A DNA stretch of 64,000 nucleotides from Escherichia phage ECO340P1: sequence record OP172791, one strand, 5' to 3'. Under the pieces are notes generated by a model, which worked only from the letters and a program-made list of their open reading frames with translations, searched no databases and was not told where the DNA came from. Position numbers and translations under genes: made by a program. Positions 1 to 32,386 of the stretch are shown in pieces. How positions within the stretch are numbered: position 1 is the stretch's first letter; each line of letters begins with the position of its first letter.

Positions 1-77
1 GGTTGATCTATAAGCTCAACATGCAAGCCGGATGATTCAGCGGTTTTAACGGCGGTTAATACTGTTGCAATACTCAT
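1..77 (-). CDS. hypothetical protein, partial (3-prime end beyond window start)
   Basis: ATG at 77 with SD AAAGGAAAAG; ORF runs off window; GC hairpin 98-113 upstream. Confidence 0.4.
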   Translation of the reverse strand, partial: MSIATVLTAVKTAESSGLHVELIDQ

Positions 78-97
78 AATCTTTTCCTTTCTGATGT

Positions 98-113
98 GGG
101 GCGTTGCCGCCCC
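98..113 (-). promoter_or_regulatory. GC hairpin in 5-prime UTR (cassette family, hairpin only)
   Basis: GGGGCG-TTGC-CGCCCC inverted repeat directly upstream of SD of gene 1-77. Confidence 0.4.
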
Positions 114-121
114 TTTGTTGA

Positions 122-421
122 TTAGATCGCTGTTTCCAGTAGTTCGGCTAACGTCTTACCGCCTGATAGTTGGTCTAACGTTTGCTCTTCTGGCAAGAAA
201 TTAGCTGATATTAATCCGACTTGATTTCCTTTGTGCCAATTAGCTTGACGGATGATTCCATCCTTTAAAGATTTTACCGCCATTGTGCAACCGTCGCCAA
301 ATGATTCATTTTTATGATCCATCACTTCATAAGCGCCCAGCTTGCTACTGTTAGGCACCATTAACGCGAATACATCACCAACAACCAGTTTTTCTACGGT
401 AATAATAGCGATAGTTTCCAT
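122..421 (-). CDS. hypothetical early protein (99 aa)
   Basis: ORF with SD GAGGAAAG directly after promoter-hairpin cassette. Confidence 0.6.
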   Translation of the reverse strand: METIAIITVEKLVVGDVFALMVPNSSKLGAYEVMDHKNESFGDGCTMAVKSLKDGIIRQANWHKGNQVGLISANFLPEEQTLDQLSGGKTLAELLETAI

Positions 422-439
422 TTTACTTTCCTCATTATC

Positions 440-496
440 GGCGGCACCATTGCCGCCCTACGTGGTAAATATTAGCACACTGGCGATCTGTGTCAA
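440..496 (-). promoter_or_regulatory. promoter-hairpin cassette for 122-421
   Basis: TTGACA 491-496, N16, TAATAT 469-474, hairpin GGCGGCA-CCAT-TGCCGCC 440-457. Confidence 0.6.
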
Positions 497-502
497 TACT
501 TT

Positions 503-889
503 TTATTCAATATAAATCAAATTATCTTCACCAATGTAAGCCGACACGTTCGGCATAAACTTAGCTGCATTGGTTAGGCGGTTGGCTGTGTTAGTGGTGT
601 ATATTTCAGGGCGATCCCAAAAGCCTACGCCGTGACCGTTACGGGTAAAATGTAAATCATTCCCGATCTGGTTGGCTGTTGCGCCGTCGCTCATTGCCTC
701 AGAGATAGCGGCAAGATTAGCATTAATAAAGGCTGTTACATCCTGGGCGATCCGTTGATCTGCGCTAGGAGAAAAATCATAATCGTCTAAGTTATCAATA
801 AAATTACCTTCATGATCCCTTGCTGATTCAGCAAAAATAAAGGCTTCTTTATAGCCGTTGATGATTTCAATAATGATTTCTGTTTTCAT
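503..889 (-). CDS. hypothetical protein (128 aa)
   Basis: ORF; ATGA start/stop overlap with upstream gene, co-transcribed. Confidence 0.6.
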   Translation of the reverse strand: MKTEIIIEIINGYKEAFIFAESARDHEGNFIDNLDDYDFSPSADQRIAQDVTAFINANLAAISEAMSDGATANQIGNDLHFTRNGHGVGFWDRPEIYTTNTANRLTNAAKFMPNVSAYIGEDNLIYIE

Positions 890-1110
890 GCTGTACGCTC
901 GACAATAATAATAGTTTGCGGGATCTCGTTTTCTACTACTAACAAGGCTTTTTTCTGTGTGATAGATATTTTAACACGTTGTAAAGTAGCGGTAAAATCT
1001 TTCATTTCATTATGCGCGGATTTAGTACAATGCCAGATCTCAGGCTTACCAACTTGTAAGCCGCGTAAAAATTCCGTTTTGCCTGTTTTGTTCGTGATCA
1101 TTTGTTTCAC
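886..1110 (-). CDS. hypothetical protein (74 aa)
   Basis: ORF with SD AAGGTGA. Confidence 0.55.
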   Translation of the reverse strand: MKQMITNKTGKTEFLRGLQVGKPEIWHCTKSAHNEMKDFTATLQRVKISITQKKALLVVENEIPQTIIIVERTA

Positions 1111-1111
1111 C

Positions 1112-1216
1112 TTAACCGATACCGTGGGAAGATAGGATCATATTAGCCATAGTTGCAACTACTCCAACCGATAACGCCAGGCCAACCACTGCAACCGTGA
1201 AAATTTTCTCTAACAT
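1112..1216 (-). CDS. small hydrophobic membrane peptide (34 aa)
   Basis: Track ORF trimmed to ATG 1216 after SD GAGGGT; longer track ORF would read through promoter and hairpin. Confidence 0.4.
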   Translation of the reverse strand: MLEKIFTVAVVGLALSVGVVATMANMILSSHGIG

Positions 1217-1235
1217 GATTCTACCCTCATTAATG

Positions 1236-1296
1236 GGCGTTGCACCATTGCCCCGCCCTACGTAATACACTTTACTAGATAACAAATTATTGTCAA
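1236..1296 (-). promoter_or_regulatory. promoter-hairpin cassette for 1112-1216 operon
   Basis: TTGACA 1291-1296, -10 TAAAGT, imperfect GC hairpin 1236-1258. Confidence 0.5.
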
Positions 1297-1299
1297 GCT

Positions 1300-1437
1300 T
1301 TATTTTACTTCCCAAACGGAAAATTCGCTGCCTGTTGGGATCATTTTTTTAATCTTGTTTGCTGCCGCTACCAGGTCAACGGCTTGTACTGTAATAATAT
1401 AACCAATTGTCGAGGCTGTTGCGTTGAAAGTTTTCAT
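1300..1437 (-). CDS. small hypothetical protein (45 aa)
   Basis: Unlisted short ORF with SD AAAGGG just after GC hairpin 1457-1474. Confidence 0.3.
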   Translation of the reverse strand: MKTFNATASTIGYIITVQAVDLVAAANKIKKMIPTGSEFSVWEVK

Positions 1438-1456
1438 TATATTGCCCTTTAATACA

Positions 1457-1474
1457 GGCGGGATTAATCCCGCC
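1457..1474 (-). promoter_or_regulatory. GC hairpin (cassette family, hairpin only)
   Basis: GGCGGGA-TTAA-TCCCGCC; no promoter hexamers adjacent. Confidence 0.4.
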
Positions 1475-1481
1475 TTTTTGA

Positions 1482-1652
1482 TTACTCTTCATTATCGCCG
1501 TTATAGTATTCAATGCCGTTTTCATCGGTTACGGTGATGTTAACGCCACCGATAGCAACACGATCACGGGCAAACGTCATAGCTTCATTTAAATCTTCAG
1601 ACCAAAAAATATTGTGACCTTTGCGCGATACATAAAACATAGTCGGGATCAT
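1482..1652 (-). CDS. hypothetical protein (56 aa)
   Basis: Track ORF trimmed; N-terminal YHIGRRNGPP is translation of the UTR hairpin. Confidence 0.5.
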   Translation of the reverse strand: MIPTMFYVSRKGHNIFWSEDLNEAMTFARDRVAIGGVNITVTDENGIEYYNGDNEE

Positions 1653-1674
1653 GATTTGTTTCTCTTCTGTTATG

Positions 1675-1736
1675 AGCGGTGGACCATTCCGCCGCCCTAT
1701 GTGGTAAACTTTACTACGTTGTTTGCCTGCTGTCAA
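1675..1736 (-). promoter_or_regulatory. promoter-hairpin cassette for 1482-1652
   Basis: TTGACA 1731-1736, N17, TAAAGT, GC hairpin 1675-1696. Confidence 0.55.
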
Positions 1737-1737
1737 A

Positions 1738-2022
1738 CTATTTTTTAATGTTTTGCCCTACAAAATCGATCACTTCCTTAAGCTGTCTCTCTGTCATGAT
1801 CGTACCTGGTAACTCTTCTTTAATTTCTTCCGGTAAATAGATATTACCGCGCCAGGTTAACAAACAACCGTTTTGATCTTCGCAGATAGAATAAGAAAAC
1901 ATCCACTCGCAATCATTTTCAAGCTCCCAAAAACACAAAAAGTCTTCTTTCCCTAAGTTTTCAACGGTTAAACATAATCCGCGACGTGCTGCATAATTAG
2001 TTAGGCTTTTTGTGATTTTCAT
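1738..2022 (-). CDS. hypothetical protein (94 aa)
   Basis: Track ORF trimmed to ATG after hairpin and GAGAG-type SD. Confidence 0.55.
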   Translation of the reverse strand: MKITKSLTNYAARRGLCLTVENLGKEDFLCFWELENDCEWMFSYSICEDQNGCLLTWRGNIYLPEEIKEELPGTIMTERQLKEVIDFVGQNIKK

Positions 2023-2043
2023 GATTTTTCTCTCTTCTTGTGA

Positions 2044-2099
2044 GCGGCACCATTGCCGCCCTACAAGATACATATTACCAGATTAAGCGGACTTGTCAA
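2044..2099 (-). promoter_or_regulatory. promoter-hairpin cassette for 1738-2022
   Basis: TTGACA 2094-2099, N16, TAATAT 2072-2077, hairpin 2044-2059. Confidence 0.6.
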
Positions 2100-2220
2100 A
2101 CTATTTTTTCTTTTTCTTTGCTTTCAATCGTCTAAGGTTACGGCTGGACTTATTGCGCAAGGCGCTTAGATCGTCGTACCCTTTCCATGCTTGCATATCT
2201 TTCGGATTCATGTTATCCCC

Positions 2221-2382
2221 TTACTTGTTAGCCGGATCATATACCAGGACCGCGCCGCTTGCTTTCACGCTTTCCGCTTCATAGTTGCGCAGATCGTTTT
2301 CTGTAAGATTGAGCGCGATCACTTCCTCGATCTCAACGCCAGCGGCAAGGGCGATCTCTTTGATAATATCTGTTGTTTTCAT
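2221..2382 (-). CDS. hypothetical protein (53 aa)
   Basis: ATG 2382 with SD AAGGTG. Confidence 0.45.
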   Translation of the reverse strand: MKTTDIIKEIALAAGVEIEEVIALNLTENDLRNYEAESVKASGAVLVYDPANK

Positions 2383-2392
2383 GGTGTGCACC

Positions 2393-2512
2393 TTATAAGA
2401 TGATTGATAAGATAGTGACAACGAAAGCGATTATACTGATGGCAAATGTCATCTTTTTACCTTCGGATACTGCCGGATTTTCTACCGTGTATTCTACTGT
2501 GTACTTGCTCAT
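2393..2512 (-). CDS. small membrane peptide (39 aa)
   Basis: Unlisted short ORF with SD GAGAGGA after cassette; hydrophobic C-terminus. Confidence 0.35.
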   Translation of the reverse strand: MSKYTVEYTVENPAVSEGKKMTFAISIIAFVVTILSIIL

Positions 2513-2535
2513 CGTGTAATCCTCTCGTTTGCTTT

Positions 2536-2592
2536 GGGAACTATTCCCGCCGCCCTATGAATTAAATATACACTATCTCAAAATGATTGCAA
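2536..2592 (-). promoter_or_regulatory. promoter-hairpin cassette for 2393-2512 and 2221-2382
   Basis: TTGCAA 2587-2592, N16, TATATT 2565-2570, hairpin GGGAA-CTA-TTCCC 2536-2548. Confidence 0.55.
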
Positions 2593-2610
2593 GCCTTTTT
2601 CTAAATTATT

Positions 2611-2895
2611 TTATTCAGTAAACAAACCATCATTTACAACGGCGGCGATGATCTCCCGTGCCATTGATTCAGGGAAAGGGGCGCTATAGTCCTGGCTTGT
2701 CTCATCGGTATCGGTGATCCAATGATAAGCTAACGAGTAAAAGCCTTTACTAACTGTTTTCAGTGAGATGATGATCACTCGGTCAAGCTTATTGGTGAAT
2801 GTTGCCGTTAATGTGTTACCCTCCTGCGTCATGTTGGACAAGTAAGCGAGATCATTAATCAGGGAAAACATTAGCACGGTGTTAGCTTTACTCAT
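2611..2895 (-). CDS. hypothetical protein (94 aa)
   Basis: Track ORF trimmed to ATG with SD GAGGATG after hairpin. Confidence 0.55.
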   Translation of the reverse strand: MSKANTVLMFSLINDLAYLSNMTQEGNTLTATFTNKLDRVIIISLKTVSKGFYSLAYHWITDTDETSQDYSAPFPESMAREIIAAVVNDGLFTE

Positions 2896-2915
2896 GATTG
2901 CATCCTCAAAGGGGC

Positions 2916-2970
2916 GCGGCACCATTGCCGCCCTACACGATAACTATAACACAATGTAAAACAGGGTCAA
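2916..2970 (-). promoter_or_regulatory. promoter-hairpin cassette for 2611-2895
   Basis: TTGACC 2965-2970, N16, TATAGT 2943-2948, hairpin 2916-2931. Confidence 0.6.
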
Positions 2971-3173
2971 CCTTTATTTTTCCACGGTGTCAGCTTGTTA
3001 ATCATTGGTGATAAATAGCGTTTACCAACGTAAAACAGTACGCCAACTGATGCAACGGCGGCGACCTCATGCATAGCCGACGGGAAACGGGTATCATAAT
3101 AAGATCCAATAATAGCAATAGCGGCAACGGCTGCAACGTCGATAATGATTTTCTCTTGTTTTGCGGTGATCAT
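2967..3173 (-). CDS. small membrane protein (68 aa)
   Basis: ORF with hydrophobic stretch; cassette upstream. Confidence 0.5.
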   Translation of the reverse strand: MITAKQEKIIIDVAAVAAIAIIGSYYDTRFPSAMHEVAAVASVGVLFYVGKRYLSPMINKLTPWKNKG

Positions 3174-3195
3174 AGTATTTACCTTTTTGTATGGT

Positions 3196-3252
3196 GGGGA
3201 ACTATTCCCCGCCTGATGTAATACAGTTTAACAGGTCCGGTTATGGTGTCAA
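3196..3252 (-). promoter_or_regulatory. promoter-hairpin cassette for 2967-3173
   Basis: TTGACA 3247-3252, N16, TAAACT 3225-3230, hairpin GGGGAA-CTA-TTCCCC. Confidence 0.6.
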
Positions 3253-3258
3253 CCACTT

Positions 3259-3444
3259 TTAAAGATATTTTATGCTAATGACGTTTTCAGGTTTTACCTT
3301 GTTATGATGTGCATCAACATAGATCAAACCATCGTCAGAAAAGCCCAGGATCACGCCCTGCGCGATAAAACCGTACTCGTCACGGTAACGCACGGCTATT
3401 TTTAATGTTGCGTTGTAGGCTGTTTTAAGCTCGTTTAAAGTCAT
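3259..3444 (-). CDS. hypothetical protein (61 aa)
   Basis: ORF with SD GAGGATAAA. Confidence 0.5.
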   Translation of the reverse strand: MTLNELKTAYNATLKIAVRYRDEYGFIAQGVILGFSDDGLIYVDAHHNKVKPENVISIKYL

Positions 3445-3463
3445 TTTTGTTTATCCTCTACAT

Positions 3464-3491
3464 GTAAAAAGAAAGGGCGCTTGATGCGCCC
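3464..3491 (-). terminator. rho-independent terminator (minus strand)
   Basis: GGGCGC-ATCAA-GCGCCC hairpin followed by TTTCTTTTT on minus strand. Confidence 0.6.
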
Positions 3492-3499
3492 TTGTTATG

Positions 3500-3646
3500 T
3501 TAATCCTCTAAATCCATCCAATTATATTTGTCACTCTTCCCGCGCTTTGTTTTATTACGCTTGTCACCTTTGCGGATCACTTCCTCGTTCCAGGCCTTGC
3601 GGATCTTGGAAGATTGAATTTTTTCTGCGCGATTAGATGTATTCAT
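3500..3646 (-). CDS. small basic protein (48 aa)
   Basis: Unlisted ORF with SD AAGAGGAAA after cassette; Lys/Arg-rich; followed by terminator. Confidence 0.4.
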   Translation of the reverse strand: MNTSNRAEKIQSSKIRKAWNEEVIRKGDKRNKTKRGKSDKYNWMDLED

Positions 3647-3666
3647 TTTGTTTCCTCTTTATATGA

Positions 3667-3719
3667 GCGGCACCATTGCCGCTATATTGTTAATTTAAAC
3701 TGTTTTGTAAAATTGTCAA
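3667..3719 (-). promoter_or_regulatory. promoter-hairpin cassette for 3500-3646
   Basis: TTGACA 3714-3719, N16, TAAATT 3692-3697, hairpin 3667-3682. Confidence 0.55.
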
Positions 3720-3725
3720 GGTTTA

Positions 3726-4079
3726 TCATTCATAAGAGCAAGCAAGGATCACGCCTGCAATATAAAGCCAATAATTTTCCCTTTCTCGTTGGATTTTATC
3801 ATCGCTGCTATTCTCTTTAATGTATCCCCAGGATGTTAACAAGCGATCAATTTCCCAATATTCGAAAGCTATATTAATATCTGATGGCAAACCTTGTAAC
3901 CATGATGCAAGTGCTTTAACAATACTATAATTAAAACGTGATTGATTATCAGGGTACCAGTACTCGGAATTAAAACGGCGCATCAATTCCGCGATCTTCT
4001 CTTTTTCGGTTGTAATACCGTAATCATTAAAATCGATAGCGGCAAGGATGTACTCTTTAATTGCATTTTGTGCTTTCAT
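3726..4079 (-). CDS. hypothetical protein (117 aa)
   Basis: ORF downstream of cassette. Confidence 0.6.
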   Translation of the reverse strand: MKAQNAIKEYILAAIDFNDYGITTEKEKIAELMRRFNSEYWYPDNQSRFNYSIVKALASWLQGLPSDINIAFEYWEIDRLLTSWGYIKENSSDDKIQRERENYWLYIAGVILACSYE

Positions 4080-4097
4080 GGTCTTTCTCTCTTTTTA

Positions 4098-4154
4098 GCG
4101 GGAACTATTCCCGCCCTACGTGTAACAGTTTACTGAAAATTAAATCCGTGTCAA
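4098..4154 (-). promoter_or_regulatory. promoter-hairpin cassette for 3726-4079
   Basis: TTGACA 4149-4154, N16, TAAACT 4127-4132, hairpin GCGGGAA-CTA-TTCCCGC 4098-4114. Confidence 0.6.
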
Positions 4155-4157
4155 GCT

Positions 4158-4379
4158 TTATTTTGTTACTACCATTTGGTACCCTGTTTCAATGTTAGTA
4201 AATACTGTTATCCCGTCCTGGCGTTCACTCATTAGCATACAAGGCGCTAACATCCTTTCTACTGCCTTGCACTCATTGTAAACGGCGGTTATGTCTCCTG
4301 CGGCCTTGTCTTCTGTGGTGAATGTATCGTTTATGTAAACTTGACTAGCGACAACGGCGACAATAGCGAAAGTGATCAT
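4158..4379 (-). CDS. hypothetical protein (73 aa)
   Basis: ORF; weak SD. Confidence 0.5.
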   Translation of the reverse strand: MITFAIVAVVASQVYINDTFTTEDKAAGDITAVYNECKAVERMLAPCMLMSERQDGITVFTNIETGYQMVVTK

Positions 4380-4452
4380 GATATTTTTCTCTTTATGTGT
4401 TTCTATTAGTTGATATTACAGCAATTCGCAGATTATTTTTTAGCAATTCGTG

Positions 4453-4671
4453 CTATTTACTCATAACAGTATCGAAAACAAATTTTTCTTTGTTGTCAAA
4501 GCTCACGTATCCGATTCTACCACGCAAGCCGCAAGTAGTGCCGTATTCGTAACCGTCAAGACCTTTAACCTTCCAATCCACGCCCATTAAAACCGCATTA
4601 TATTTCTGACCAACTACAAACGCGCCACCAGTTGATTCAATGCAAACAACTTTAATTTTACGGATTGCCAT
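4453..4671 (-). CDS. hypothetical protein (72 aa)
   Basis: ORF downstream of promoter TTGACT-N16-TACAAT. Confidence 0.55.
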   Translation of the reverse strand: MAIRKIKVVCIESTGGAFVVGQKYNAVLMGVDWKVKGLDGYEYGTTCGLRGRIGYVSFDNKEKFVFDTVMSK

Positions 4672-4708
4672 TTTCTTTCTCTCTTTCTGGTGATTGGTTT
4701 CTCTTCTC

Positions 4709-4746
4709 TATAGCGCCCATTGTAAGGCGCTATAACGAAAAGTCAA
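4709..4746 (-). promoter_or_regulatory. promoter with overlapping 9-bp inverted repeat, for 4453-4671
   Basis: TTGACT 4741-4746, N16, TACAAT inside TATAGCGCC-N8-GGCGCTATA dyad 4709-4734. Confidence 0.5.
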
Positions 4747-4749
4747 CGA

Positions 4750-4917
4750 TTATTTTTTAAGGCTTAAAGTACCTAACTTGTCAGCATGACGCAGACCAGG
4801 GAATATCCATTTGCCTGACTCATCTTTCACCGGGGCTTTAAGCGTAGCGCCCAGGTTGGCGGCGTTAACTTTACGTGCAACGTTGCGAGCGGCTTCACGG
4901 GTAGCGAAAGTGATCAT
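4750..4917 (-). CDS. small hypothetical protein (55 aa)
   Basis: Unlisted ORF with SD AGAGGAAAA after cassette. Confidence 0.45.
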   Translation of the reverse strand: MITFATREAARNVARKVNAANLGATLKAPVKDESGKWIFPGLRHADKLGTLSLKK

Positions 4918-4941
4918 GGTGTTTTCCTCTTCTCTTTGTTA

Positions 4942-5003
4942 GGCGGTGGACCATTCCGCCGCCTTGATGTAATACAGTTTACTTTATTTTATTAAGATTG
5001 CAA
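4942..5003 (-). promoter_or_regulatory. promoter-hairpin cassette for 4750-4917
   Basis: TTGCAA 4998-5003, N16, TAAACT 4976-4981, GC inverted repeat 4942-4963. Confidence 0.55.
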
Positions 5004-5009
5004 GCGGTT

Positions 5010-5225
5010 TTATGAAATAATTGTCAAAGTAAAATCATAAGACTGATTTAATTTATATTGTACTTTATTGCCGTAGTAGTCACCTTTACGTAAAGATCCG
5101 CGAATACCTATCACATCCTTTACATCTTTAAGATTTTTTACGCCTGTAATGTCTTTATTGAAATACTCGTCATCTGAAAATAAAACTTGACTTGCATTTT
5201 TTAACAGTGTACGGATATTAGCCAT
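5010..5225 (-). CDS. hypothetical protein (71 aa)
   Basis: ORF downstream of cassette. Confidence 0.55.
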   Translation of the reverse strand: MANIRTLLKNASQVLFSDDEYFNKDITGVKNLKDVKDVIGIRGSLRKGDYYGNKVQYKLNQSYDFTLTIIS

Positions 5226-5250
5226 CGTGATAATCTCTCTTCTGTTGTGA

Positions 5251-5306
5251 GCGGCACTATTGCCGCCCTACGTAATACAGTTTACTCTTTTTCTTTCCGG
5301 TGTCAA
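5251..5306 (-). promoter_or_regulatory. promoter-hairpin cassette for 5010-5225
   Basis: TTGACA 5301-5306, N16, TAAACT 5279-5284, hairpin 5251-5266. Confidence 0.6.
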
Positions 5307-5315
5307 CAATCTTTT

Positions 5316-5543
5316 TCAGATTAATTCATCCAGGCATAACAGGCGATCAACGTTGAGATCGGTTAGGCTGATGGTTGGCACCTGGTAGGATTCGATGTAC
5401 TCGACGCTTGCATATTCCCCAAAATTAGCAACAGCCCACTTATTCAAGATCTCACATACATCATTAATCTTTTTGTTTGTTACAACTGCAATGACCTGGG
5501 AAGTGCCAACGGTGCCGGATACGCGAACAATATTGATAGCCAT
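5316..5543 (-). CDS. hypothetical protein (75 aa)
   Basis: ORF downstream of cassette. Confidence 0.55.
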   Translation of the reverse strand: MAINIVRVSGTVGTSQVIAVVTNKKINDVCEILNKWAVANFGEYASVEYIESYQVPTISLTDLNVDRLLCLDELI

Positions 5544-5565
5544 AATCTTTAATCTCTCTGTTTTG

Positions 5566-5624
5566 GCGGGAAACCACTTCCCGCCCTATGTGATACATCT
5601 TACACTAATTTTAAACGTTGTCAA
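5566..5624 (-). promoter_or_regulatory. promoter-hairpin cassette for 5316-5543
   Basis: TTGACA 5619-5624, N16, TAAGAT, hairpin GGCGGGAA-N5-TTCCCGCC 5566-5586. Confidence 0.6.
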
Positions 5625-5633
5625 CTGTTTTTA

Positions 5634-5873
5634 TTACATTCCAACCATCGCGGCACGGATCGCAGTAGTGCTATATTTGAAACCGTCTGGCGTTTTATCT
5701 TGTCCAGTTTGTTCCAGAAAAAGCATCATATCCCGCGCCGCATCATTACGATTAGCATTAGCGTTAATAAAATCTTGGGCCAACCGGTATAACGATTCAT
5801 CGTTATTAATCCAAAGGCTTACATTCCAATGAGTTTTGTTTTTGTGACCGTTGTACATTTTAGATTTAGCCAT
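5634..5873 (-). CDS. hypothetical protein (79 aa)
   Basis: ORF downstream of cassette. Confidence 0.55.
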   Translation of the reverse strand: MAKSKMYNGHKNKTHWNVSLWINNDESLYRLAQDFINANANRNDAARDMMLFLEQTGQDKTPDGFKYSTTAIRAAMVGM

Positions 5874-5897
5874 GATTTTTCTCTCTTTTTCAGTGAG

Positions 5898-5956
5898 GCG
5901 GGAAGTGTTCCCGCTCTCTATGTAATACAGTTTACTCTTTTTATTCGTGCTGTCAA
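5898..5956 (-). promoter_or_regulatory. promoter-hairpin cassette for 5634-5873
   Basis: TTGACA 5951-5956, N16, TAAACT 5929-5934, hairpin 5898-5914. Confidence 0.6.
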
Positions 5957-5962
5957 TGCTTT

Positions 5963-6328
5963 TTATAAATCTTTTTTACGTTTTACATCGCTCGCATGAC
6001 TGTATACAGTGATCCCATTGTCACGGCAAAAACGGGAAAGATACGCGCCGCGTGAAAACTCTTTACCTTCCATATTAATAACCTTGCTAAATTCTTCCAG
6101 GGCGACGGTATCAAAATGATCACCATAGCCATATTGAAACGGAACGTTAACCACCTCGATCAGTTTACCGCCGATCTCAACGTCAACCATTAAAGAAAAA
6201 TATGTGTTACCGTAGGACTGTTGAAACCAGCGACGGGCGCTAATGTGCACCGCTTCAATGCTGGATAATTCAATTTTAGCCGTGTTAGCCAGGGTAGCAT
6301 AAGCGGAAACATTGATATTAATAGCCAT
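5963..6328 (-). CDS. hypothetical protein (121 aa)
   Basis: ORF downstream of cassette. Confidence 0.6.
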   Translation of the reverse strand: MAININVSAYATLANTAKIELSSIEAVHISARRWFQQSYGNTYFSLMVDVEIGGKLIEVVNVPFQYGYGDHFDTVALEEFSKVINMEGKEFSRGAYLSRFCRDNGITVYSHASDVKRKKDL

Positions 6329-6354
6329 GATGATAATCTCTCTTTTTGGTTAGT

Positions 6355-6406
6355 GGGAAGTATTCCCGATAAAAGTTATTATGCTTATACTATCACTCAT
6401 TGTCAA
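6355..6406 (-). promoter_or_regulatory. promoter-hairpin cassette for 5963-6328
   Basis: TTGACA 6401-6406, N17, CATAAT 6378-6383, hairpin GGGAA-GTA-TTCCC. Confidence 0.55.
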
Positions 6407-6425
6407 TAGTATAAGACTAAAACTT

Positions 6426-6605
6426 TTAACGATAATCGTTATAGGCTTTATTGACCTGGCGAATGTAACATTCGAAAGCAAGATCAATGTATTCGTATTC
6501 ACGCACATAATCACCATAGGTCACTACATACATTTTTAAAGTTTCCTCATAAGCCAGGAGGATCGAATCTAAACCTATAATCTCAGTTTTTGCAATGATA
6601 GCCAT
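6426..6605 (-). CDS. small hypothetical protein (59 aa)
   Basis: Unlisted ORF with SD AAAAGG after cassette. Confidence 0.45.
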   Translation of the reverse strand: MAIIAKTEIIGLDSILLAYEETLKMYVVTYGDYVREYEYIDLAFECYIRQVNKAYNDYR

Positions 6606-6625
6606 GATGTTAACCTTTTATTGTT

Positions 6626-6682
6626 GGCGGCACCATTGCCGCCCTACGTGATAAACTATACCAGAAGTTTAAACAGTGTCAA
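6626..6682 (-). promoter_or_regulatory. promoter-hairpin cassette for 6426-6605
   Basis: TTGACA 6677-6682, N16, TATAGT 6655-6660, hairpin 6626-6643. Confidence 0.6.
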
Positions 6683-6688
6683 CCGTTT

Positions 6689-7051
6689 TTATTCGTAAAT
6701 TTTACCGCTTTCGGCCCATACCATAACGCGGCGCATACTATCCCAAGTGTTTTGATCCAGGTTTAATCCGTGCAATTCTTCGGTACTTCCCAGACCAGGT
6801 ACCGCCTTGTTGTAAGTTGCATATAAGCGCCCTTGATACTCATACGCCAGGGTGAGATCCGTTTGAATCATCTTTTTAAGCATAGCATTAAGCATCATAT
6901 TAGCGGCATGTTGATCACGTTTTAGCGGTAACATATCAATAAGGGCGCGATAAGCTGAAACATGAATATCAACCGTTTCACGTGGTAAATTTTTCATCTC
7001 ATCGCGGAAAGATACCAGATTAAACATGATAGTATTGATTTGCTTGCTCAT
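6689..7051 (-). CDS. hypothetical protein (120 aa)
   Basis: Track ORF trimmed to ATG with SD AAAGGG after hairpin. Confidence 0.6.
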   Translation of the reverse strand: MSKQINTIMFNLVSFRDEMKNLPRETVDIHVSAYRALIDMLPLKRDQHAANMMLNAMLKKMIQTDLTLAYEYQGRLYATYNKAVPGLGSTEELHGLNLDQNTWDSMRRVMVWAESGKIYE

Positions 7052-7074
7052 TGTGTTACCCTTTTTTTGTTTTG

Positions 7075-7134
7075 GCGGGGAAGTATTCCGCCGCCCTATG
7101 TGATACATCTTATCAGATTAAAAAACGTTGTCAA
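7075..7134 (-). promoter_or_regulatory. promoter-hairpin cassette for 6689-7051
   Basis: TTGACA 7129-7134, N16, TAAGAT 7107-7112, GC inverted repeat 7075-7096. Confidence 0.6.
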
Positions 7135-7143
7135 GAATATTTT

Positions 7144-7239
7144 TTAGAAAATAATAGCCGCTACTACAACCCAAAATGGAACGGCGAAAATGAGAGCGTT
7201 AATCGTTCCAACCGTCAAGCTATTTTCTTTATTAATCAT
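7144..7239 (-). CDS. small hydrophobic peptide (31 aa)
   Basis: Unlisted ORF with SD AGAGGC after a full cassette. Confidence 0.3.
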   Translation of the reverse strand: MINKENSLTVGTINALIFAVPFWVVVAAIIF

Positions 7240-7268
7240 TGTAAGCCTCTTGCATAATTTCACTATGA

Positions 7269-7325
7269 GCGGCACCATTGCCGCCCTACGTGGTAAATAT
7301 TATGCCAGTGGCGGCGATATGTCAA
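7269..7325 (-). promoter_or_regulatory. promoter-hairpin cassette for 7144-7239
   Basis: TTGACA 7320-7325, N17, TAATAT 7297-7302, hairpin 7269-7284. Confidence 0.55.
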
Positions 7326-7879
7326 AGACTATTTTCAAAGTTTTCTAGTGCGATCCTTTTTTCTTCCTCTGTCGGCTGATAATCAGGAAAAGCATCAACA
7401 CACAACAACGGCGGGATCTCTTCGTACTCTTCCTCTTCCGTTGTCTCCTCGTCTTCCTCCTGGGCTATGGCTGCAATTTTGGCTAATTTTCTTTCGGCTT
7501 GAATCAATTTACCATCAAGTACGTTTTTTGCCATGTTGTAAGCGGTCCAGGTGATGCGCTTACTTTCCAGGGCTTGATCGAGCGCCGCTATCTTGCTGGG
7601 GTATTCATCCAGGACACGAAAAGCCGGATCAATTTTGTACAAAGGATTATCTTTCGCGCCGTCGCTCGCATCTTCCGCACTGGATAAATCAGCGTTACCA
7701 TTTGCCAGCCAGCCAGGGCGCACATAACGCGCTTTTACGTTGCCGTTACTACGTGCTAACCTGTTACCTATTTGCTCACCGCTATATCCCGTGGATTCAT
7801 CGATAAGATGATCGGGAATGATGCGCGGATCATCTGCTTCATGTTTTACCCAAGACTGGATCACATATTCGCGGCCCAT
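7322..7879 (-). CDS. hypothetical protein with acidic C-terminal region (185 aa)
   Basis: ATG 7879 with SD AAGGTGG (track start is GTG); Glu-rich stretch EEDEETTEEEEYEE. Confidence 0.6.
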   Translation of the reverse strand: MGREYVIQSWVKHEADDPRIIPDHLIDESTGYSGEQIGNRLARSNGNVKARYVRPGWLANGNADLSSAEDASDGAKDNPLYKIDPAFRVLDEYPSKIAALDQALESKRITWTAYNMAKNVLDGKLIQAERKLAKIAAIAQEEDEETTEEEEYEEIPPLLCVDAFPDYQPTEEEKRIALENFENSL

Positions 7880-7880
7880 A

Positions 7881-8138
7881 TTAACCACCTTTTTTCAACA
7901 ATTGGCATACTTTGAAAAGACTTGCTGAATCCTTGCAAGGGTAGAAAGATGTACGATAATCACGTACGCCAACCTTGCGGATCTCGATGTTTTCGCATGT
8001 TGTTTGATCAAAGATATTTATTTCATCACGCCCCCTTATATAAACATAGTGGGGATGTATTAACGCATATTTTGCTAATCTGTAAAAAGCGTTATCTTTG
8101 AACGCGATCACGTGACCTTTTAATTTGATGTAAAACAT
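7881..8138 (-). CDS. hypothetical protein (85 aa)
   Basis: ORF with SD AAGGTGG after cassette. Confidence 0.55.
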   Translation of the reverse strand: MFYIKLKGHVIAFKDNAFYRLAKYALIHPHYVYIRGRDEINIFDQTTCENIEIRKVGVRDYRTSFYPCKDSASLFKVCQLLKKGG

Positions 8139-8156
8139 TCTACCACCTTACAAATA

Positions 8157-8212
8157 GCGGGAACTATTCCCGCTTTATGTAACATATTAACAAATTATTC
8201 GTTAATGTCAAG
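8157..8212 (-). promoter_or_regulatory. promoter-hairpin cassette for 7881-8138 and 7322-7879
   Basis: TTGACA 8207-8212, N16, TAATAT 8185-8190, hairpin 8157-8175. Confidence 0.6.
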
Positions 8213-8214
8213 CT

Positions 8215-8487
8215 TTAAAGCAAAAACGCTACATCTTGCGCTTTTAGTGTAGTATCAACCATTTTTGGGCTTTTATAATCAACAAAGCGCGCGGTTTTTT
8301 CAATAGCAAAACCGAGATAATCTTGTTTATTGAATTTACATTCTTTCTTAAATGTTTCCCGCGCCACGGTGATCGCTGCGTCCAGGGATAAACGCCCGTC
8401 AATGTTGATATTTGCGAAAGATCCGCCACCGCTCATAGGTTTACCAGTGGTGCCAGCTACGATCATTGTTGCGCTATATGATGCCAT
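8215..8487 (-). CDS. hypothetical protein (90 aa)
   Basis: Track ORF trimmed to ATG after hairpin and SD AGAGAG. Confidence 0.55.
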   Translation of the reverse strand: MASYSATMIVAGTTGKPMSGGGSFANINIDGRLSLDAAITVARETFKKECKFNKQDYLGFAIEKTARFVDYKSPKMVDTTLKAQDVAFLL

Positions 8488-8509
8488 GATGATAATCTCT
8501 CTGTTGTGA

Positions 8510-8570
8510 GCGGCTGGACCATTCCGCCGCCCTATGTGGTACATCTTATCAGGTTGTTGTTTGTTGTCAA
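8510..8570 (-). promoter_or_regulatory. promoter-hairpin cassette for 8215-8487
   Basis: TTGACA 8565-8570, N16, TAAGAT 8543-8548, GC inverted repeat 8510-8530. Confidence 0.6.
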
Positions 8571-8576
8571 TACTTT

Positions 8577-8774
8577 TTATTCTATTCCTGCAATTTGATT
8601 AACGCGCTTGCATTTTGTAGCGTGCTGGTCTTCTGTAATGACTCCCATTTCTAACAGGGAATCAATGAAAGATAAAACCGTTTCATGATCATCCTGGGGA
8701 TGACTGAACTCAGTAAAACCGTTTACTATTACGTTGATTTGTCCAGCTTTCGCCACAATATGCAATGTTGCCAT
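8577..8774 (-). CDS. hypothetical protein (65 aa; start uncertain, may extend to 8903)
   Basis: ATG 8774 with SD GGAG; long GC-rich leader upstream. Confidence 0.45.
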   Translation of the reverse strand: MATLHIVAKAGQINVIVNGFTEFSHPQDDHETVLSFIDSLLEMGVITEDQHATKCKRVNQIAGIE

Positions 8775-8908
8775 GATCTTAACTCCAGGTGATAAATGAT
8801 GTTTTTTGTTGGTGGACGGTGGATTATGGAGATCCTCACCTTTGCCCGTCCTGCATTGCGCCCTCCTGTTGTTTATTGTCGTTGTGCCGCGCCCCCTCGA
8901 CAAGATGA

Positions 8909-8937
8909 ATACTACGCTACCAGGTGAGGAACGTCAA
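8909..8937 (-). promoter_or_regulatory. sigma70-type promoter for 8577-8774 with long GC-rich leader
   Basis: TTGACG 8932-8937, N17, TAGTAT 8909-8914; ~130 nt leader holds a 6-codon uORF at 8836-8856. Confidence 0.5.
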
Positions 8938-8954
8938 CCACTTTTTCAATCTTT

Positions 8955-8981
8955 TTTATTTTCTTTTTGCTTGCTATATAT
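8955..8981 (+). promoter_or_regulatory. extended -10 promoter for 9047-9313
   Basis: TGcTATATA at 8972-8980; GC hairpin GCGCC-N6-GGCGC 9008-9025 in leader. Confidence 0.35.
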
Positions 8982-9046
8982 AAAGGAAAGGGCTATCATC
9001 TTTCTACCGCGCCAACCAGGGCGCACAACAAAGAAAGGGCGACACC

Positions 9047-9313
9047 ATGACAAATACTACATTACACCTTATGCACTCATTGGGCTGGCAAGGCGGCACG
9101 GTGCACCAGGTAGCAAGCGCAACGGGCTTAAAGGTTGAAACAGTTCTCAACCTGGGCGATCATAAGGTGGAAGAGATAGATCATTTTGATACGTTCGCAA
9201 ATGGTTATCTATGGGCTTGCAGTGGCGGCGGGGAAAGCAAGATACCACCAGGGGCGCGGGGCGATATGTATTTTTGGTTAGGTGTCCTATCCTGGCAAGA
9301 AAACAAAAAATAA
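9047..9313 (+). CDS. hypothetical protein (88 aa)
   Basis: ORF with SD AAAGGG; extended -10 promoter and GC hairpin upstream. Confidence 0.5.
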   Translation: MTNTTLHLMHSLGWQGGTVHQVASATGLKVETVLNLGDHKVEEIDHFDTFANGYLWACSGGGESKIPPGARGDMYFWLGVLSWQENKK

Positions 9314-9314
9314 T

Positions 9315-9343
9315 CTTGACAAGCCCAGGGATCGGGCTTATAC
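9315..9343 (+). promoter_or_regulatory. strong sigma70-type promoter reading into non-coding region
   Basis: TTGACA 9315-9320, N17, TATACT 9338-9343; spacer is itself a dyad AGCCC..GGGCT. Confidence 0.6.
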
Positions 9344-9559
9344 TGTTTTACATACAGAAGAGGAAGCGCCACCCCACGGCGTAAAGGCGGGGCTAACATA
9401 CCAGGGGGCACTGGTTGGAAGGTTGATCGCCGGTAGGCTGGGCGCTATATATTTGTAAAGAAATGTAAAGATAAAATAATCGCTTGCTTTCCTGGCTGGA
9501 TCTGTTATTCTTATTACATGGCGAGGGGACACGGGAGCGCGAGACAAACACCGCCCCTG

Positions 9560-9945
9560 CGCGTCATTCTCTAAATGAGAATGATTATCATTTACCTTAT
9601 CAAATAAGAATCAATCTCATTTATAAACCTAAATGCGAATCATTATCATTTGCATTTCCATATGAGAACTCTTCTCATTCTCATCTGCATAAATTTTTGT
9701 AAACTTTAAATTTTGCTTTTGTACTTTCATTTTTGTAAAAGCAAAAAAACTTTAAATACTGTGGGCGCGCAAAATTTTTAAAATTTTCCTTGACTTTTGA
9801 GTTTTGTTTTGTATCTGACATTTTAAGATAATTTTCCTAAACTTTAAATTTTGGTTTTCAACTTTCACTTTTGTAAATTCTTAAAAAGTTTAAATAATTT
9901 GAGGGATTTTTGAGATAATAGGTAATGGGAATTTGAGATAACCTT
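9560..9945. repeat. AT-rich non-coding region with direct repeats (candidate replication origin)
   Basis: ~42 bp direct repeat at 9698-9741 and 9837-9880; ATGAGAATGATTATCATTT-like repeats at 9575-9685; TTTGAGATAA twice at 9909-9941. Confidence 0.45.
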
Positions 9946-12492: not shown

Positions 12493-13632
12493 TCAGAACA
12501 CGCTACCCAGTGTAGTGGAACGTTGTGTTACAGGCTCCAGCACCACTCGCAGAGTGTTTCCTGGTGTAGTGCTCATCACCAGAATCTTACCACCTTCAAT
12601 CAGATCACAAGTTAGACCATCAGCAGTTGCACACAGATCAATATGTGGATCGCCATCTTCATCCAGGATAACATAACTGTTGGTTTCCATTGCTTCCACT
12701 TCATCATCTTTCAAACTTTGTAGATAGATGTTCAGGGAACAAGCACCCGACAAAAACTTAGTAGGGGTGAAGTCGTGCCAGTTATTGATCCAATTCACCT
12801 TCAAGGTTTTGCCATTAGCTACGATAGAAGCCACATTCCATTTAGCATCGTTCCCTAAAGAAATACCCATCATTTCAAGACATTCTTTAAAAGTCATTTT
12901 TGGATAGAAATTCAATTCTTCTACAATGCCTTGAATAACATCGAAAGACAACTCTGTGCTAACATCCCATAAACGTTGGAAGTTATCTACGTGCTTTTTA
13001 TTTACCAAGTTCTTATCCAAGTAATCTAACATAGTTTCACTAGATAGTTTATCGTAATTGAAACTGTAGTAGATACGACTAGGACGGTTTACAAAATATT
13101 CCGAGATATAGCCACTATTTTTAGTGAGGATGTAAAGTTTATTCCCACTTCCTGTTCCATCCAACAAGGTCAACAGTGCTTCCTGATCTTCTTTCTTAGC
13201 GTACACTTTATCAAATTCGTCAAATAAAACAACAGCACGATCTGTAATTTTACTCATAAATTCTAAGAAGCCAGCATCTGTGTAAGGCTGTGTAACCAAA
13301 ATGGTTGGAATACCTAAACCTTCTGTGGACATTAGAGACATGCTAATCAGTTTAGCTAACATCGTCTTACCACTGCCCTTTGTCCCTGTCAGTAACACCC
13401 CAGTATTTTTACCTTCTTTACTACGACGAGCAAATGTTTTAATAACATGTGCGGCGCGGTCTTTAGTTTCCCCATAAAGAGTGTTCGGAAGAGAGAAACT
13501 TTCGCCACGCACTAAAGAGTAGTTACCGTGCGGATCGCAGTTGACAACCCAAACTCCAGCAGGAAGTTTATTAGCTTCAACACCATATTCCTTATTTACA
13601 ACAGCCACATCTCCAAAAATAGTGTATTTCAT
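12493..13632 (-). CDS. AAA+ ATPase
   Basis: Walker A GTKGSGKT and Walker B VVLFDEFD; unknown C-terminal domain. Confidence 0.65.
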   Translation of the reverse strand: MKYTIFGDVAVVNKEYGVEANKLPAGVWVVNCDPHGNYSLVRGESFSLPNTLYGETKDRAAHVIKTFARRSKEGKNTGVLLTGTKGSGKTMLAKLISMSLMSTEGLGIPTILVTQPYTDAGFLEFMSKITDRAVVLFDEFDKVYAKKEDQEALLTLLDGTGSGNKLYILTKNSGYISEYFVNRPSRIYYSFNYDKLSSETMLDYLDKNLVNKKHVDNFQRLWDVSTELSFDVIQGIVEELNFYPKMTFKECLEMMGISLGNDAKWNVASIVANGKTLKVNWINNWHDFTPTKFLSGACSLNIYLQSLKDDEVEAMETNSYVILDEDGDPHIDLCATADGLTCDLIEGGKILVMSTTPGNTLRVVLEPVTQRSTTLGSVF

Positions 13633-21619: not shown

Positions 21620-22129
21620 ATGTTCTTTGATGCAAATTCTCTTTTTGTATCTACAGCAGGGCAGTCTGCTGTTAATGCAGAATTTGAGGAAAGAGAAGAA
21701 TGGATTGATAATCACAACTATGATCCAAGTAATCTAAACTGGTGCAGTTTGGATGTTGGTAATCTTAGTAGAGATAATGCACTTAGAGCATACTACTCTG
21801 TATATACTGTTGACAATCTTTATCAATACTACGTGTTTCGTAGTCTTATTGTTAATCTTAATTTAGCTGGACGTTTAAAGAACAATAAGGCATTCACATT
21901 GGGACATTATATTCCCTTCCGTAAAGGTGGTGTGCATTTTCCATGTAATTGGATCATTCAAACACGAAAAGAAAACAGTTTAGCAGGAGACACCATGCCA
22001 AGATTTAAAGATAAGTGGACATGGGAAAAACAAATGGGGTACATTAATGCACATTTGCCACCTAATCTAAAAGAACCTTATGCCAGCAGAGCTAAGGAAA
22101 TGATGAGGATTGTCAAGAGTTTTTATTAA
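21620..22129 (+). CDS. HNH endonuclease-like protein
   Basis: ATG 21620 with SD AAAGGAGGGAG; motif GHYIPFRKGGVH..CNW..ENS. Confidence 0.5.
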   Translation: MFFDANSLFVSTAGQSAVNAEFEEREEWIDNHNYDPSNLNWCSLDVGNLSRDNALRAYYSVYTVDNLYQYYVFRSLIVNLNLAGRLKNNKAFTLGHYIPFRKGGVHFPCNWIIQTRKENSLAGDTMPRFKDKWTWEKQMGYINAHLPPNLKEPYASRAKEMMRIVKSFY

Positions 22130-22143
22130 GAGAGGAGAAATAC

Positions 22144-31304: not shown

Positions 31305-31363
31305 TTGACATAGTTCTTAAAAAGAGTAAGATATATCACATGAAGCGGGGAATAGTTCCCCGC
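31305..31363 (+). promoter_or_regulatory. promoter-hairpin cassette (plus-strand copy) for TerC gene
   Basis: TTGACA 31305-31310, N16, TAAGAT 31327-31332, hairpin GCGGGGAA-TAG-TTCCCCGC 31345-31363, then SD GAGAGGAGAAAAG. Confidence 0.6.
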
Positions 31364-31380
31364 AAAGAGAGGAGAAAAGA

Positions 31381-32355: not shown

Positions 32356-32361
32356 TAAATG

Positions 32362-32386
32362 AGCCTCCTTCGGGAGGCTATTTTAT
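32362..32386 (+). terminator. rho-independent terminator after TerC gene
   Basis: AGCCTCC-TTCG-GGAGGCT followed by ATTTTAT. Confidence 0.7.

Follow-up and report, generated by a model that had tools for sequence, protein, structure and literature searches.

Within the first 8.6 kb of a 64,000-nucleotide stretch of Escherichia phage ECO340P1 (sequence record OP172791; the whole stretch is referred to here as the window), small minus-strand genes follow one another in succession, and almost every one of them is preceded by a short cassette in which a promoter of the sigma70 type is followed by a GC hairpin and a leader with a Shine-Dalgarno (SD) sequence. We see about an even chance that these cassettes are portable early-expression units, in which a hairpin at the transcript's 5' end hinders 5'-end-dependent decay and the repeats double as recombination joints. 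According to this reading, the host sigma70 RNA polymerase would start at the near-consensus promoter, at the purine of a CAYRTAG sequence, and the nascent RNA would fold within 0-5 nt into a 7-10 bp GC hairpin, whereas the unstructured A-rich leader with its SD sequence would stay open for ribosomes. The 5'-terminal hairpin may then make the 5' end harder to reach for RppH and RNase E, so that the immediate-early mRNAs would be stabilized, and homologous recombination between cassette copies would add, delete and swap gene modules among related phages.

Anatomy of the cassettes and their predicted transcripts

Strand reading and tabulation of the intergenic regions yielded 19 cassettes on the minus strand, with -35 elements starting at positions 496 to 8570, and a single one on the plus strand at 31305, thus bearing out an earlier note on this DNA, which had described promoter and hairpin cassettes in front of the small early genes. 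The range of the family had been taken there to begin at position 98, but the GC hairpin found at 98-113 has no promoter. This hairpin and another one at 1456-1475, also of the cassette style and also without promoter, are intergenic among the early genes and terminator-like on the plus strand, where they have T-rich tails.

Each unit measures 60-90 bp and is built in the same order (Table 1): an A-rich stretch that holds the stop codon of the upstream gene, the -35 element, a spacer, the -10 element, the sequence GTATYACRTA, the GC hairpin, an A-rich leader with the SD sequence, and the ATG. The -35 element is TTGACA in 17 of the 20 cassettes, the others having TTGCAA (two) or TTGACC (one); the spacer is 16-17 nt long and not conserved in sequence, and the -10 element fits TAnnnT with one exception, CATAAT. 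A motif read in the earlier note as CTACGTRRTA had been placed about 10 nt past the promoter; it is instead the conserved stretch of 10-11 nt, GTATYACRTA, directly between the -10 element and the hairpin. The hairpins are of the GC type, with stems of 7-10 bp and overall lengths of 16-25 nt, and the three types quoted before are correct if they are read on the plus strand. When the 16 intact hairpins were each scored alone, folding free energies of about -9 to -15 kcal/mol were obtained. Decayed hairpins were found in two cassettes, 6406 and 2593, and two early promoters, 8937 and 4746, lack a standard hairpin of the family.

The position of the hairpin is tied to the promoter. It begins 36-39 nt past the start of the -35 element in 18 of the 19 minus-strand cassettes and 9-12 nt past the -10 element in 15 of the 20, whereas the distance from hairpin to first ATG ranges from 4 to 26 nt, the first ATG picked by the script not always being the true start. 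As the former distance is nearly constant and the latter variable, the hairpin is placed relative to the promoter or the 5' end and not relative to the ribosome-binding site. Reading frames beginning with MYHIGRRN, which had been regarded as artefactual, are so indeed, their ATG being part of the TAAGATG of the -10 element.

In Escherichia coli, transcription usually starts 7-8 nt past the -10 element, with preference for a purine that follows a pyrimidine. The start was therefore assigned to the R of CAYRTAG, a purine located 8 nt past the -10 element, so that the predicted transcript would begin with A/G-U-A (R-U-A). The hairpin would then begin at +3 to +5 of this transcript, within about 0-5 nt of the predicted 5' end, in agreement with the earlier proposal of a sigma70-type promoter followed by a hairpin at the very 5' end. 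When 11 leaders were folded from the predicted +1, the centroid structure of all 11 was a single 5' hairpin after 0-5 unpaired nt (z from -1.4 to -4.1), and the SD sequence and the AUG were essentially open.

The family is concentrated in the early region. Thirteen exact occurrences of RTAGGGCGG, the 5' half of the shared motif, were counted, all of them on the minus strand within 453-8535, against 0.19 ± 0.42 in shuffled sequences, and perfect GC hairpins are as numerous in the first 8.2 kb (14) as in the remaining 56 kb (14). A covariance model (R1), an approach that the earlier note had proposed for the cassettes, was built from seven cassette copies with a single hairpin type and run on the window plus 100 kb of phage phAPEC8, 164 kb in total. 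All matches with E values up to 0.012 were within cassettes, and no cassette was found in the 164 kb outside the early region and its continuation except for the copy upstream of the TerC gene. The weaker cassette copies had E values of 0.6-2, near three noise matches with E values of at least 3.5. As R1 derives from one hairpin type and the other types score poorly (E from 0.01 to 2), it was not used for statistics on relatives.

Pairing in the hairpin stems

To describe the variation of the hairpin, 49 distinct cores from 16 loci were collected. The stems include GGCGGCA/TGCCGCC, GGCGGGAA/TTCCCGCC, GGCGGGAAA/TTTCCCGCC and GGCGGcGGA/TCCaCCGCC, in addition to GGGCG-GG-GCA/TGC-AA-CGCCC, GGGGCG/CGCCCC and GGGGC/GCCCC, and the loops include TGG, ATGG, TAG, TAC, TGT, AAC, ACAAG and AATAAG. 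A rule-based parser was too permissive for this list, since it admitted AT-rich pseudo-hairpins, and was replaced by an energy-filtered list with anchored registration. Since the MAFFT alignments A1 and A2 had misregistered the 3' arms, pairs were counted on a manual alignment (A5), padded with N and with the conserved 5' flank as its anchor.

In A5, 90.5% of the cells were paired, compared to 78.7% in shuffles, none of 500 of which reached the observed value, and to 40-62% when the partner columns were slid, although these counts lean toward structure, as pairing was used in the registration. Both sides had changed in 8 of the 10 pairs. A cleaner case is provided by the orthologues of cassette c6682, the flanks of which are essentially invariant: GGCGG-CA-ATGG-TG-CCGCC of the window is replaced by GGCGG-GAA-loop-TTC-CCGCC in three relatives. 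The compensatory variation in A5 and this replacement of an orthologous stem indicate that it is the pairing, and not the sequence, that is kept in the stems, as far as can be read from the DNA. On the sense strand, G.U pairs were more frequent than A.C pairs (24 vs. 11, p = 0.04, the cells being non-independent), which weakly favours folding of the transcript itself. A G-rich 5' arm with a C-rich 3' arm was also considered as a marker of strand polarity and was dropped, because this arrangement holds on both strands of any such palindrome.

Relatives and recombination junctions

When positions 1-9000 were compared with deposited phages by megablast, Escherichia phage vB_EcoM-P3322 was 99.0% identical along the entire length and many Phapecoctavirus genomes were 95-97% identical; record PV191315 is 99% identical to the window. 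By these matches, the phage belongs to Phapecoctavirus (Stephanstirmvirinae), that is, to the phAPEC8-like myoviruses of E. coli with genomes of about 150 kb. Some relatives of this region, at 96-97% identity to the present coliphage, are recorded as phages of Campylobacter, Acinetobacter, Pseudomonas and Klebsiella; several of these records are flagged UNVERIFIED, and their host labels look doubtful. Regarding the early proteins, seven of eight sampled had no Pfam match, and the remaining one matched DUF7249, a family of unknown function.

The cassettes extend well beyond this genus. A BLAST search with one cassette gave matches in phi92 and other Justusliebigvirus and shorter ones in FV3 and other Vequintavirus, and with R1 and a promoter-plus-fold scan, phi92 was confirmed to have about 16 copies and FV3 several, their distance from the -10 element being the same. 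Judged from these sequence matches, the family spans Stephanstirmvirinae and Vequintavirinae. A pattern scan of IMG/VR returned mostly single matches, probably due to chance, and several copies were present only on contigs of 137-153 kb. In the same scan, a GC-rich contig of 279 kb matched the pattern at 12640-12830 with two tandem copies of TTGACA...TAGGGCGGGGGCGGGTGGTG, 114 nt apart and of an unrelated style.

The family also continues to the left of the window, as a further cassette is present in phAPEC8 at 4473-4540 (TTGACA-17-TATTAT, hairpin GGGC-GA-GC-AATACA-GC-AA-GCCC), past the position that corresponds to the left end of the window. Directly downstream of the cassette region, and also outside the window, phAPEC8 (JX561091) has 1.5 kb without annotated gene at 5494-7022. 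In phi92 (21978-22320), the cassette-rich early region stops roughly 1 kb short of the right direct terminal repeat, so that the early genes adjoin a physical end of the genome.

For the analysis of junctions, positions 1-9600 were aligned to seven Phapecoctavirus relatives. Eleven of 28 breakpoint clusters fell in cassettes, which make up 22.6% of the region (binomial p = 0.036). Five events were clearly associated with cassettes (441/472, 4990/5262, 6336/6598, 4386/4695 and 8787/8900), two of them with one end outside the scored interval. At c496, four relatives have an extra insert of about 240 bp, probably a small gene, flanked by duplicates of the c496 hairpin (441-472). In phage 536P1 the gene at 5010-5225 is missing, and the promoter of c5306 is fused to the hairpin of c5003 within the common sequence TAAACTGTATTAC. 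The segment 6336-6598 is missing from five relatives, with the join in the common ATCATCATGGCTAT at the 3' ends of cassettes, the 6598 end lying 2 nt outside the cassette interval as scored; c6406 and its upstream gene are absent from five of the seven relatives. The gene at 4453-4671 (72 aa), served by promoter 4746, was found in none of the seven and is joined in SD regions (4386/4695), of which just the 4695 end lies inside a cassette interval, the other being located in the SD sequence of the next gene.

The 8787/8900 event corresponds to a swap of the leader of promoter 8937 between relatives. The alternative leader, of about 105 nt, contains an SD sequence and a mini-reading frame, ATGCAGGACGGGCAAAGGTGA (MQDGQR*), and is near-identical in phi92; no significant fold was detected in it (z +0.4).

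Apart from these events, the same subtype of -10 element and discriminator is combined with different hairpin types within the window, and such mosaic combinations suggest exchange between the halves of different copies. The plus-strand cassette had been described as an identical copy in front of a TerC gene. It is indeed a member of the family and the gene behind it is TerC (Pfam PF03741, E 1e-38), whereas the copy is not identical. The homology of TerC to Justusliebigvirus starts at 31314, within the cassette, and stops just past the stop codon; identity over 31314-32379 of the plus strand is about 88% with this phi92 group, and the flanks were left unaligned by megablast.

Table 1. Cassettes of the window and early promoters without the family hairpin, with promoter given as -35 element, spacer length and -10 element.
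Feature	Position	Strand	Promoter	Hairpin	Remarks
c8570	8508-8570	-	TTGACA-16-TAAGAT	8508-8532 (GGGCGGCGGAATGGTCCAGCCGCTC)	serves gene starting at 8487; R1 E 9e-6
c8211	8156-8211	-	TTGACA-16-TAATAT	8156-8174 (AGCGGGAATAGTTCCCGCT)	
c7325	7267-7325	-	TTGACA-17-TAATAT	7267-7286 (GGGCGGCAATGGTGCCGCTC)	R1 59.6 bits
c7134	7074-7134	-	TTGACA-16-TAAGAT	7074-7095 (GGCGGcGGAATACTTCCCCGCC)	
c6682	6626-6682	-	TTGACA-16-TATAGT	6626-6643	inner stem differs, still paired, in three relatives
c6406	6355-6406	-	TTGACA-17-CATAAT	decayed (GGGAATACTTCCC, -4 kcal/mol)	
c5956	5895-5956	-	TTGACA-16-TAAACT	5895-5918 (GAGaGCGGGAACACTTCCCGCCTC)	downstream gene encodes the DUF7249 protein
c5624	5565-5624	-	TTGACA-16-TAAGAT	5565-5585 (GGCGGGAAGTGGTTTCCCGCC)	
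c5306	5249-5306	-	TTGACA-16-TAAACT	5249-5268	partner in the c5306/c5003 deletion junction of phage 536P1
c5003	4941-5003	-	TTGCAA-16-TAAACT	4941-4964 (AGGCGGcGGAATGGTCCaCCGCCT)	
c4154	4097-4154	-	TTGACA-16-TAAACT	4097-4115	
c3719	3666-3719	-	TTGACA-16-TAAATT	3666-3683 (AGCGGCAATGGTGCCGCT)	
c3252	3193-3252	-	TTGACA-16-TAAACT	3193-3213	
c2970	2912-2970	-	TTGACC-16-TATAGT	2912-2933	
c2593	2536-2593	-	TTGCAA-16-TATATT (weak)	ATAGGGCGGCGGG kept, 3' arm decayed	
c2099	2042-2099	-	TTGACA-16-TAATAT	2042-2061	stem extendable to 14 bp; z -4.1
c1736	1674-1736	-	TTGACA-17-TAAAGT	1674-1697	
c1296	1235-1296	-	TTGACA-16-TAAAGT	1235-1258, with GG/AA internal loop	replacement breakpoint at 1269
c496	440-496	-	TTGACA-16-TAATAT	440-457	
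TerC cassette	31305-31363	+	TTGACA-16-TAAGAT	31345-31363 (GCGGGGAATAGTTCCCCGC)	before TerC coding sequence 31381-32355
promoter 8937	8775-8937	-	TTGACG-17-TAGTAT		hairpin of phAPEC8 at this place replaced by leader of about 105 nt
promoter 4746	4690-4746	-	TTGACT-16-TACAAT	no downstream family hairpin	inverted repeat TATAGCGCC/GGCGCTATA around the -10 element

Alternative explanations and known systems

The terminator scan revealed no U-tract after the cassette hairpins on the coding strand, the tails being A-rich, and an intrinsic (Rho-independent) terminator was ruled out on these grounds. An RNase III processing site, as in the early mRNAs of T7, consists of about 20 bp of double-stranded RNA and was also ruled out, the stems having just 7-10 bp, and a reading similar to the nut sites of lambda was rejected on anatomy. 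No Rfam family matched at the gathering threshold in the 64 kb, nor at E ≤ 1 in positions 1-9600. The phAPEC8 record JX561091 has the hairpin 20-mer gtagggcggcaatggtgccg annotated as 'putative promoter determined with PHIRE' and, adjoining these features, the sigma70 part as 'host dependent promoter (MEME)'. The motif had thus been noticed already under a promoter label, whereas the 20-mer is the hairpin, with a complete sigma70 promoter upstream of it. No evidence was found for a phage-specific polymerase behind the PHIRE motif, and these labels in GenBank are probably wrong. A literature search revealed no paper on the cassettes and no transcriptomics for phages of the phAPEC8, phi92, rV5 or PVP-SE1 types.

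The preferred explanation, the stabilizing 5' hairpin, takes its biochemistry from the host. RppH and RNase E depend on a minimum of two nucleotides being free of pairing at the 5' end and prefer at least three, and RppH disfavours a pyrimidine at position 2 (PMC8833179), the predicted ends here being A/G-U-A; secondary structure at the 5' end has long been known to stabilize mRNAs in E. coli (PMC3997798). From these requirements and that classical effect, we infer that the hairpin would prolong the life of the immediate-early mRNAs. A role as mRNA stabilizer, one of those suggested in the earlier note, is plausible, as it fits the fixed offset from the promoter, the compensatory pairing, the open leader and the lack of a U-tract. 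The recombination part of the explanation rests on the presence of a unit of 60-90 bp before almost every small orphan open reading frame (ORFan) of the early region, between the copies of which homologous recombination may shuffle modules.

Several observations weigh against this explanation. The predicted overhang of 3 nt already meets the minimum of RppH and RNase E, at the permissive limit, and a start 2 nt more upstream would leave 5-6 nt unpaired, with weak protection as the result. There are almost no terminators in the region, so that in read-through transcripts the hairpins would be internal and a role at the 5' end irrelevant. The two decayed hairpins and the two promoters without one mean that the hairpin is not indispensable, and RTAGGGCGG is conserved beyond what pairing needs, while the pair counts of A5 have the lean described above. 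With respect to recombination, the enrichment of breakpoints in cassettes is modest and several indels (894/1112, 1331/1457, 2222 and 7155/7171) are outside them, so that the junction effect is real but partial.

The conservation of RTAGGGCGG speaks for a different function, in which this sequence and the hairpin would be bound or cleaved, as RNA or, in the case of an operator at +4 to +25, as DNA, by a phage or host factor that shuts off or coordinates the whole immediate-early class. One motif is common to about 20 early promoters, its 5' half is strongly conserved (the 13 exact copies), even with the decayed 3' arm of c2593, and roadblock operators typically sit, as this motif does, just downstream of the start. 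However, stem length, and hence the spacing of half-sites, varies along with the 16-25 nt of the hairpins, the loops vary widely (TGG, ATGG, TAG, TGT, AAC, ACAAG and others), some copies have different stems (GGGGCG/CGCCCC and GGGGC/GCCCC, in partly hand-curated rows), and the stem of the orthologous c6682 was replaced in a compensatory way. Such variation argues against a dimeric operator of fixed spacing or a loop-specific binder, and no candidate protein was identified, so we regard a regulatory site of this kind as rather unlikely. The idea of a factor switching the whole early regulon, also put forward in the earlier note, found no positive support, the widely varying loops and stem lengths arguing against a single loop-specific or fixed-spacing binder, although the conserved RTAGGGCGG keeps it alive. 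We similarly have little expectation that the shared 5' leader is a regulon-wide address tag, read by a dedicated phage or host factor (for instance an RNA-binding protein, nuclease or recombinase) and timing the shut-off, stability or mobility of the immediate-early class in phages of the rV5 and phAPEC8 types; if it were, such a post-transcriptional early switch would differ from the ones known in T4, T7 and lambda.

Read-through itself leads to another possibility, that the hairpins act inside polycistronic transcripts as a barrier to 3'-to-5' exonucleases or as a processing landmark, stabilizing the upstream cistron in the manner of repetitive extragenic palindromic (REP) elements. The only strong minus-strand terminator found by the scan in 8.5 kb with about 20 promoters is located at 3473-3493, so that read-through is expected, and the promoterless hairpins at 98-113 and 1456-1475 would suit such a role. 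Nevertheless, a 3'-protective element needs no fixed distance of 10-11 nt from the -10 element, and hairpins were found only beside promoters by the model with the 5' flank; we regard this option, too, as rather unlikely. The terminator at 3473-3493 is bidirectional.

A further explanation derives from the promoter-early stem-loops (PeSLs) of the T4-like phages RB49/phi1, PST and nt-1 (Arbiol et al. 2010, PMC2839356; Comeau et al. 2014, PMC4122927). PeSLs combine a near-consensus sigma70 promoter with a stem-loop of a G-run and a C-run, are present some 50 times per genome, upstream of ORFans in hyperplastic regions, and have a stem-loop shown to terminate transcription, with recombination between copies giving rise to indels and mini-circles (PMC2839356; PMC4122927). 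The hairpin could likewise attenuate or terminate transcription coming from upstream and in this way insulate each cassette, given that a PeSL stem-loop cut reporter expression as much as rrnB T1 (PMC2839356) and that the G-rich/C-rich style of the stem is shared. This appears quite improbable, because no U-tract follows any cassette hairpin and because an efficient terminator downstream of its own promoter would abort the cassette's own transcripts. Finally, the hairpin could be a by-product without selected role of a promoter-leader spread by duplication and homogenized by gene conversion, as the mosaic combinations of promoter and hairpin, the junctions inside cassettes and the decay of two copies might indicate. 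We consider this very unlikely: pairing is kept through double changes, length changes affect both arms together, the family is retained across two phage subfamilies, and the spacer between -35 and -10 is free to vary whereas the hairpin is not.

For readers versed in PeSLs and 5' stabilizer hairpins, cassettes of this sort will hold little surprise; as a design principle for the early genes of a widely used phage group, they are tidy, open to test and probably general. Myoviruses of the phAPEC8, phi92 and rV5 types are common therapeutic and model coliphages. A standard cassette before about 20 host-takeover ORFans provides a direct handle on the expression of the whole gene class, and it is also a compact, ready-made expression unit for phage engineering. 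In annotation, false N-termini arise because gene callers read on through the hairpins. The idea of regulatory cassettes as recombination linkers, developed for PeSLs, is extended here beyond the T4-like phages, which would support it as a general means for large lytic phages to shuffle accessory genes.

Compared to known systems, the element is a PeSL-like cassette of a different phage lineage, one whose stem-loop has a fixed place within the transcribed leader. As in PeSLs, a near-consensus sigma70 promoter with an A-rich upstream sequence, a G-run/C-run stem-loop, an SD sequence and an ATG form an intergenic unit of less than 100 bp, tens of copies are clustered upstream of small ORFans, and junctions of indels and replacements between close relatives lie inside the units. 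In contrast, PeSLs have been described in T4-like myoviruses, whereas the present lineage is Stephanstirmvirinae/Vequintavirinae. The PeSL stem-loop is mostly between or over the -35 and -10 elements, or upstream of them, and is a shown terminator, whereas the cassette hairpin, which lacks a U-tract, is part of the transcript and, with few exceptions, keeps a constant position downstream of the -10 element. In the window, promoter 4746 is the sole one with a repeat around the -10 element, a position in the style of PeSLs.

The leaders of ompA and papA, with their 5'-terminal stem-loops that stabilize mRNA (Emory, Bouvet and Belasco 1992, reviewed in PMC3997798), offer a second parallel. They share with the cassettes a stable hairpin a few nucleotides from the 5' end, here a predicted one, followed by the ribosome-binding region, and a requirement for pairing over sequence. 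However, ompA and papA are single host genes with experimental half-lives, whereas here a portable module with a predicted 5' hairpin is repeated before about 20 phage early genes. Phage morons and the cassettes of integrons are similar in that one gene moves together with the signals for its expression; in the case of TerC, homology to another genus starts at the promoter. Integrons operate with attC sites and an integrase, and morons, to our knowledge, are not thought to use conserved flanking repeats; unlike both, the repeat in these phages is the promoter-leader itself, and its exchange looks like ordinary homologous recombination.

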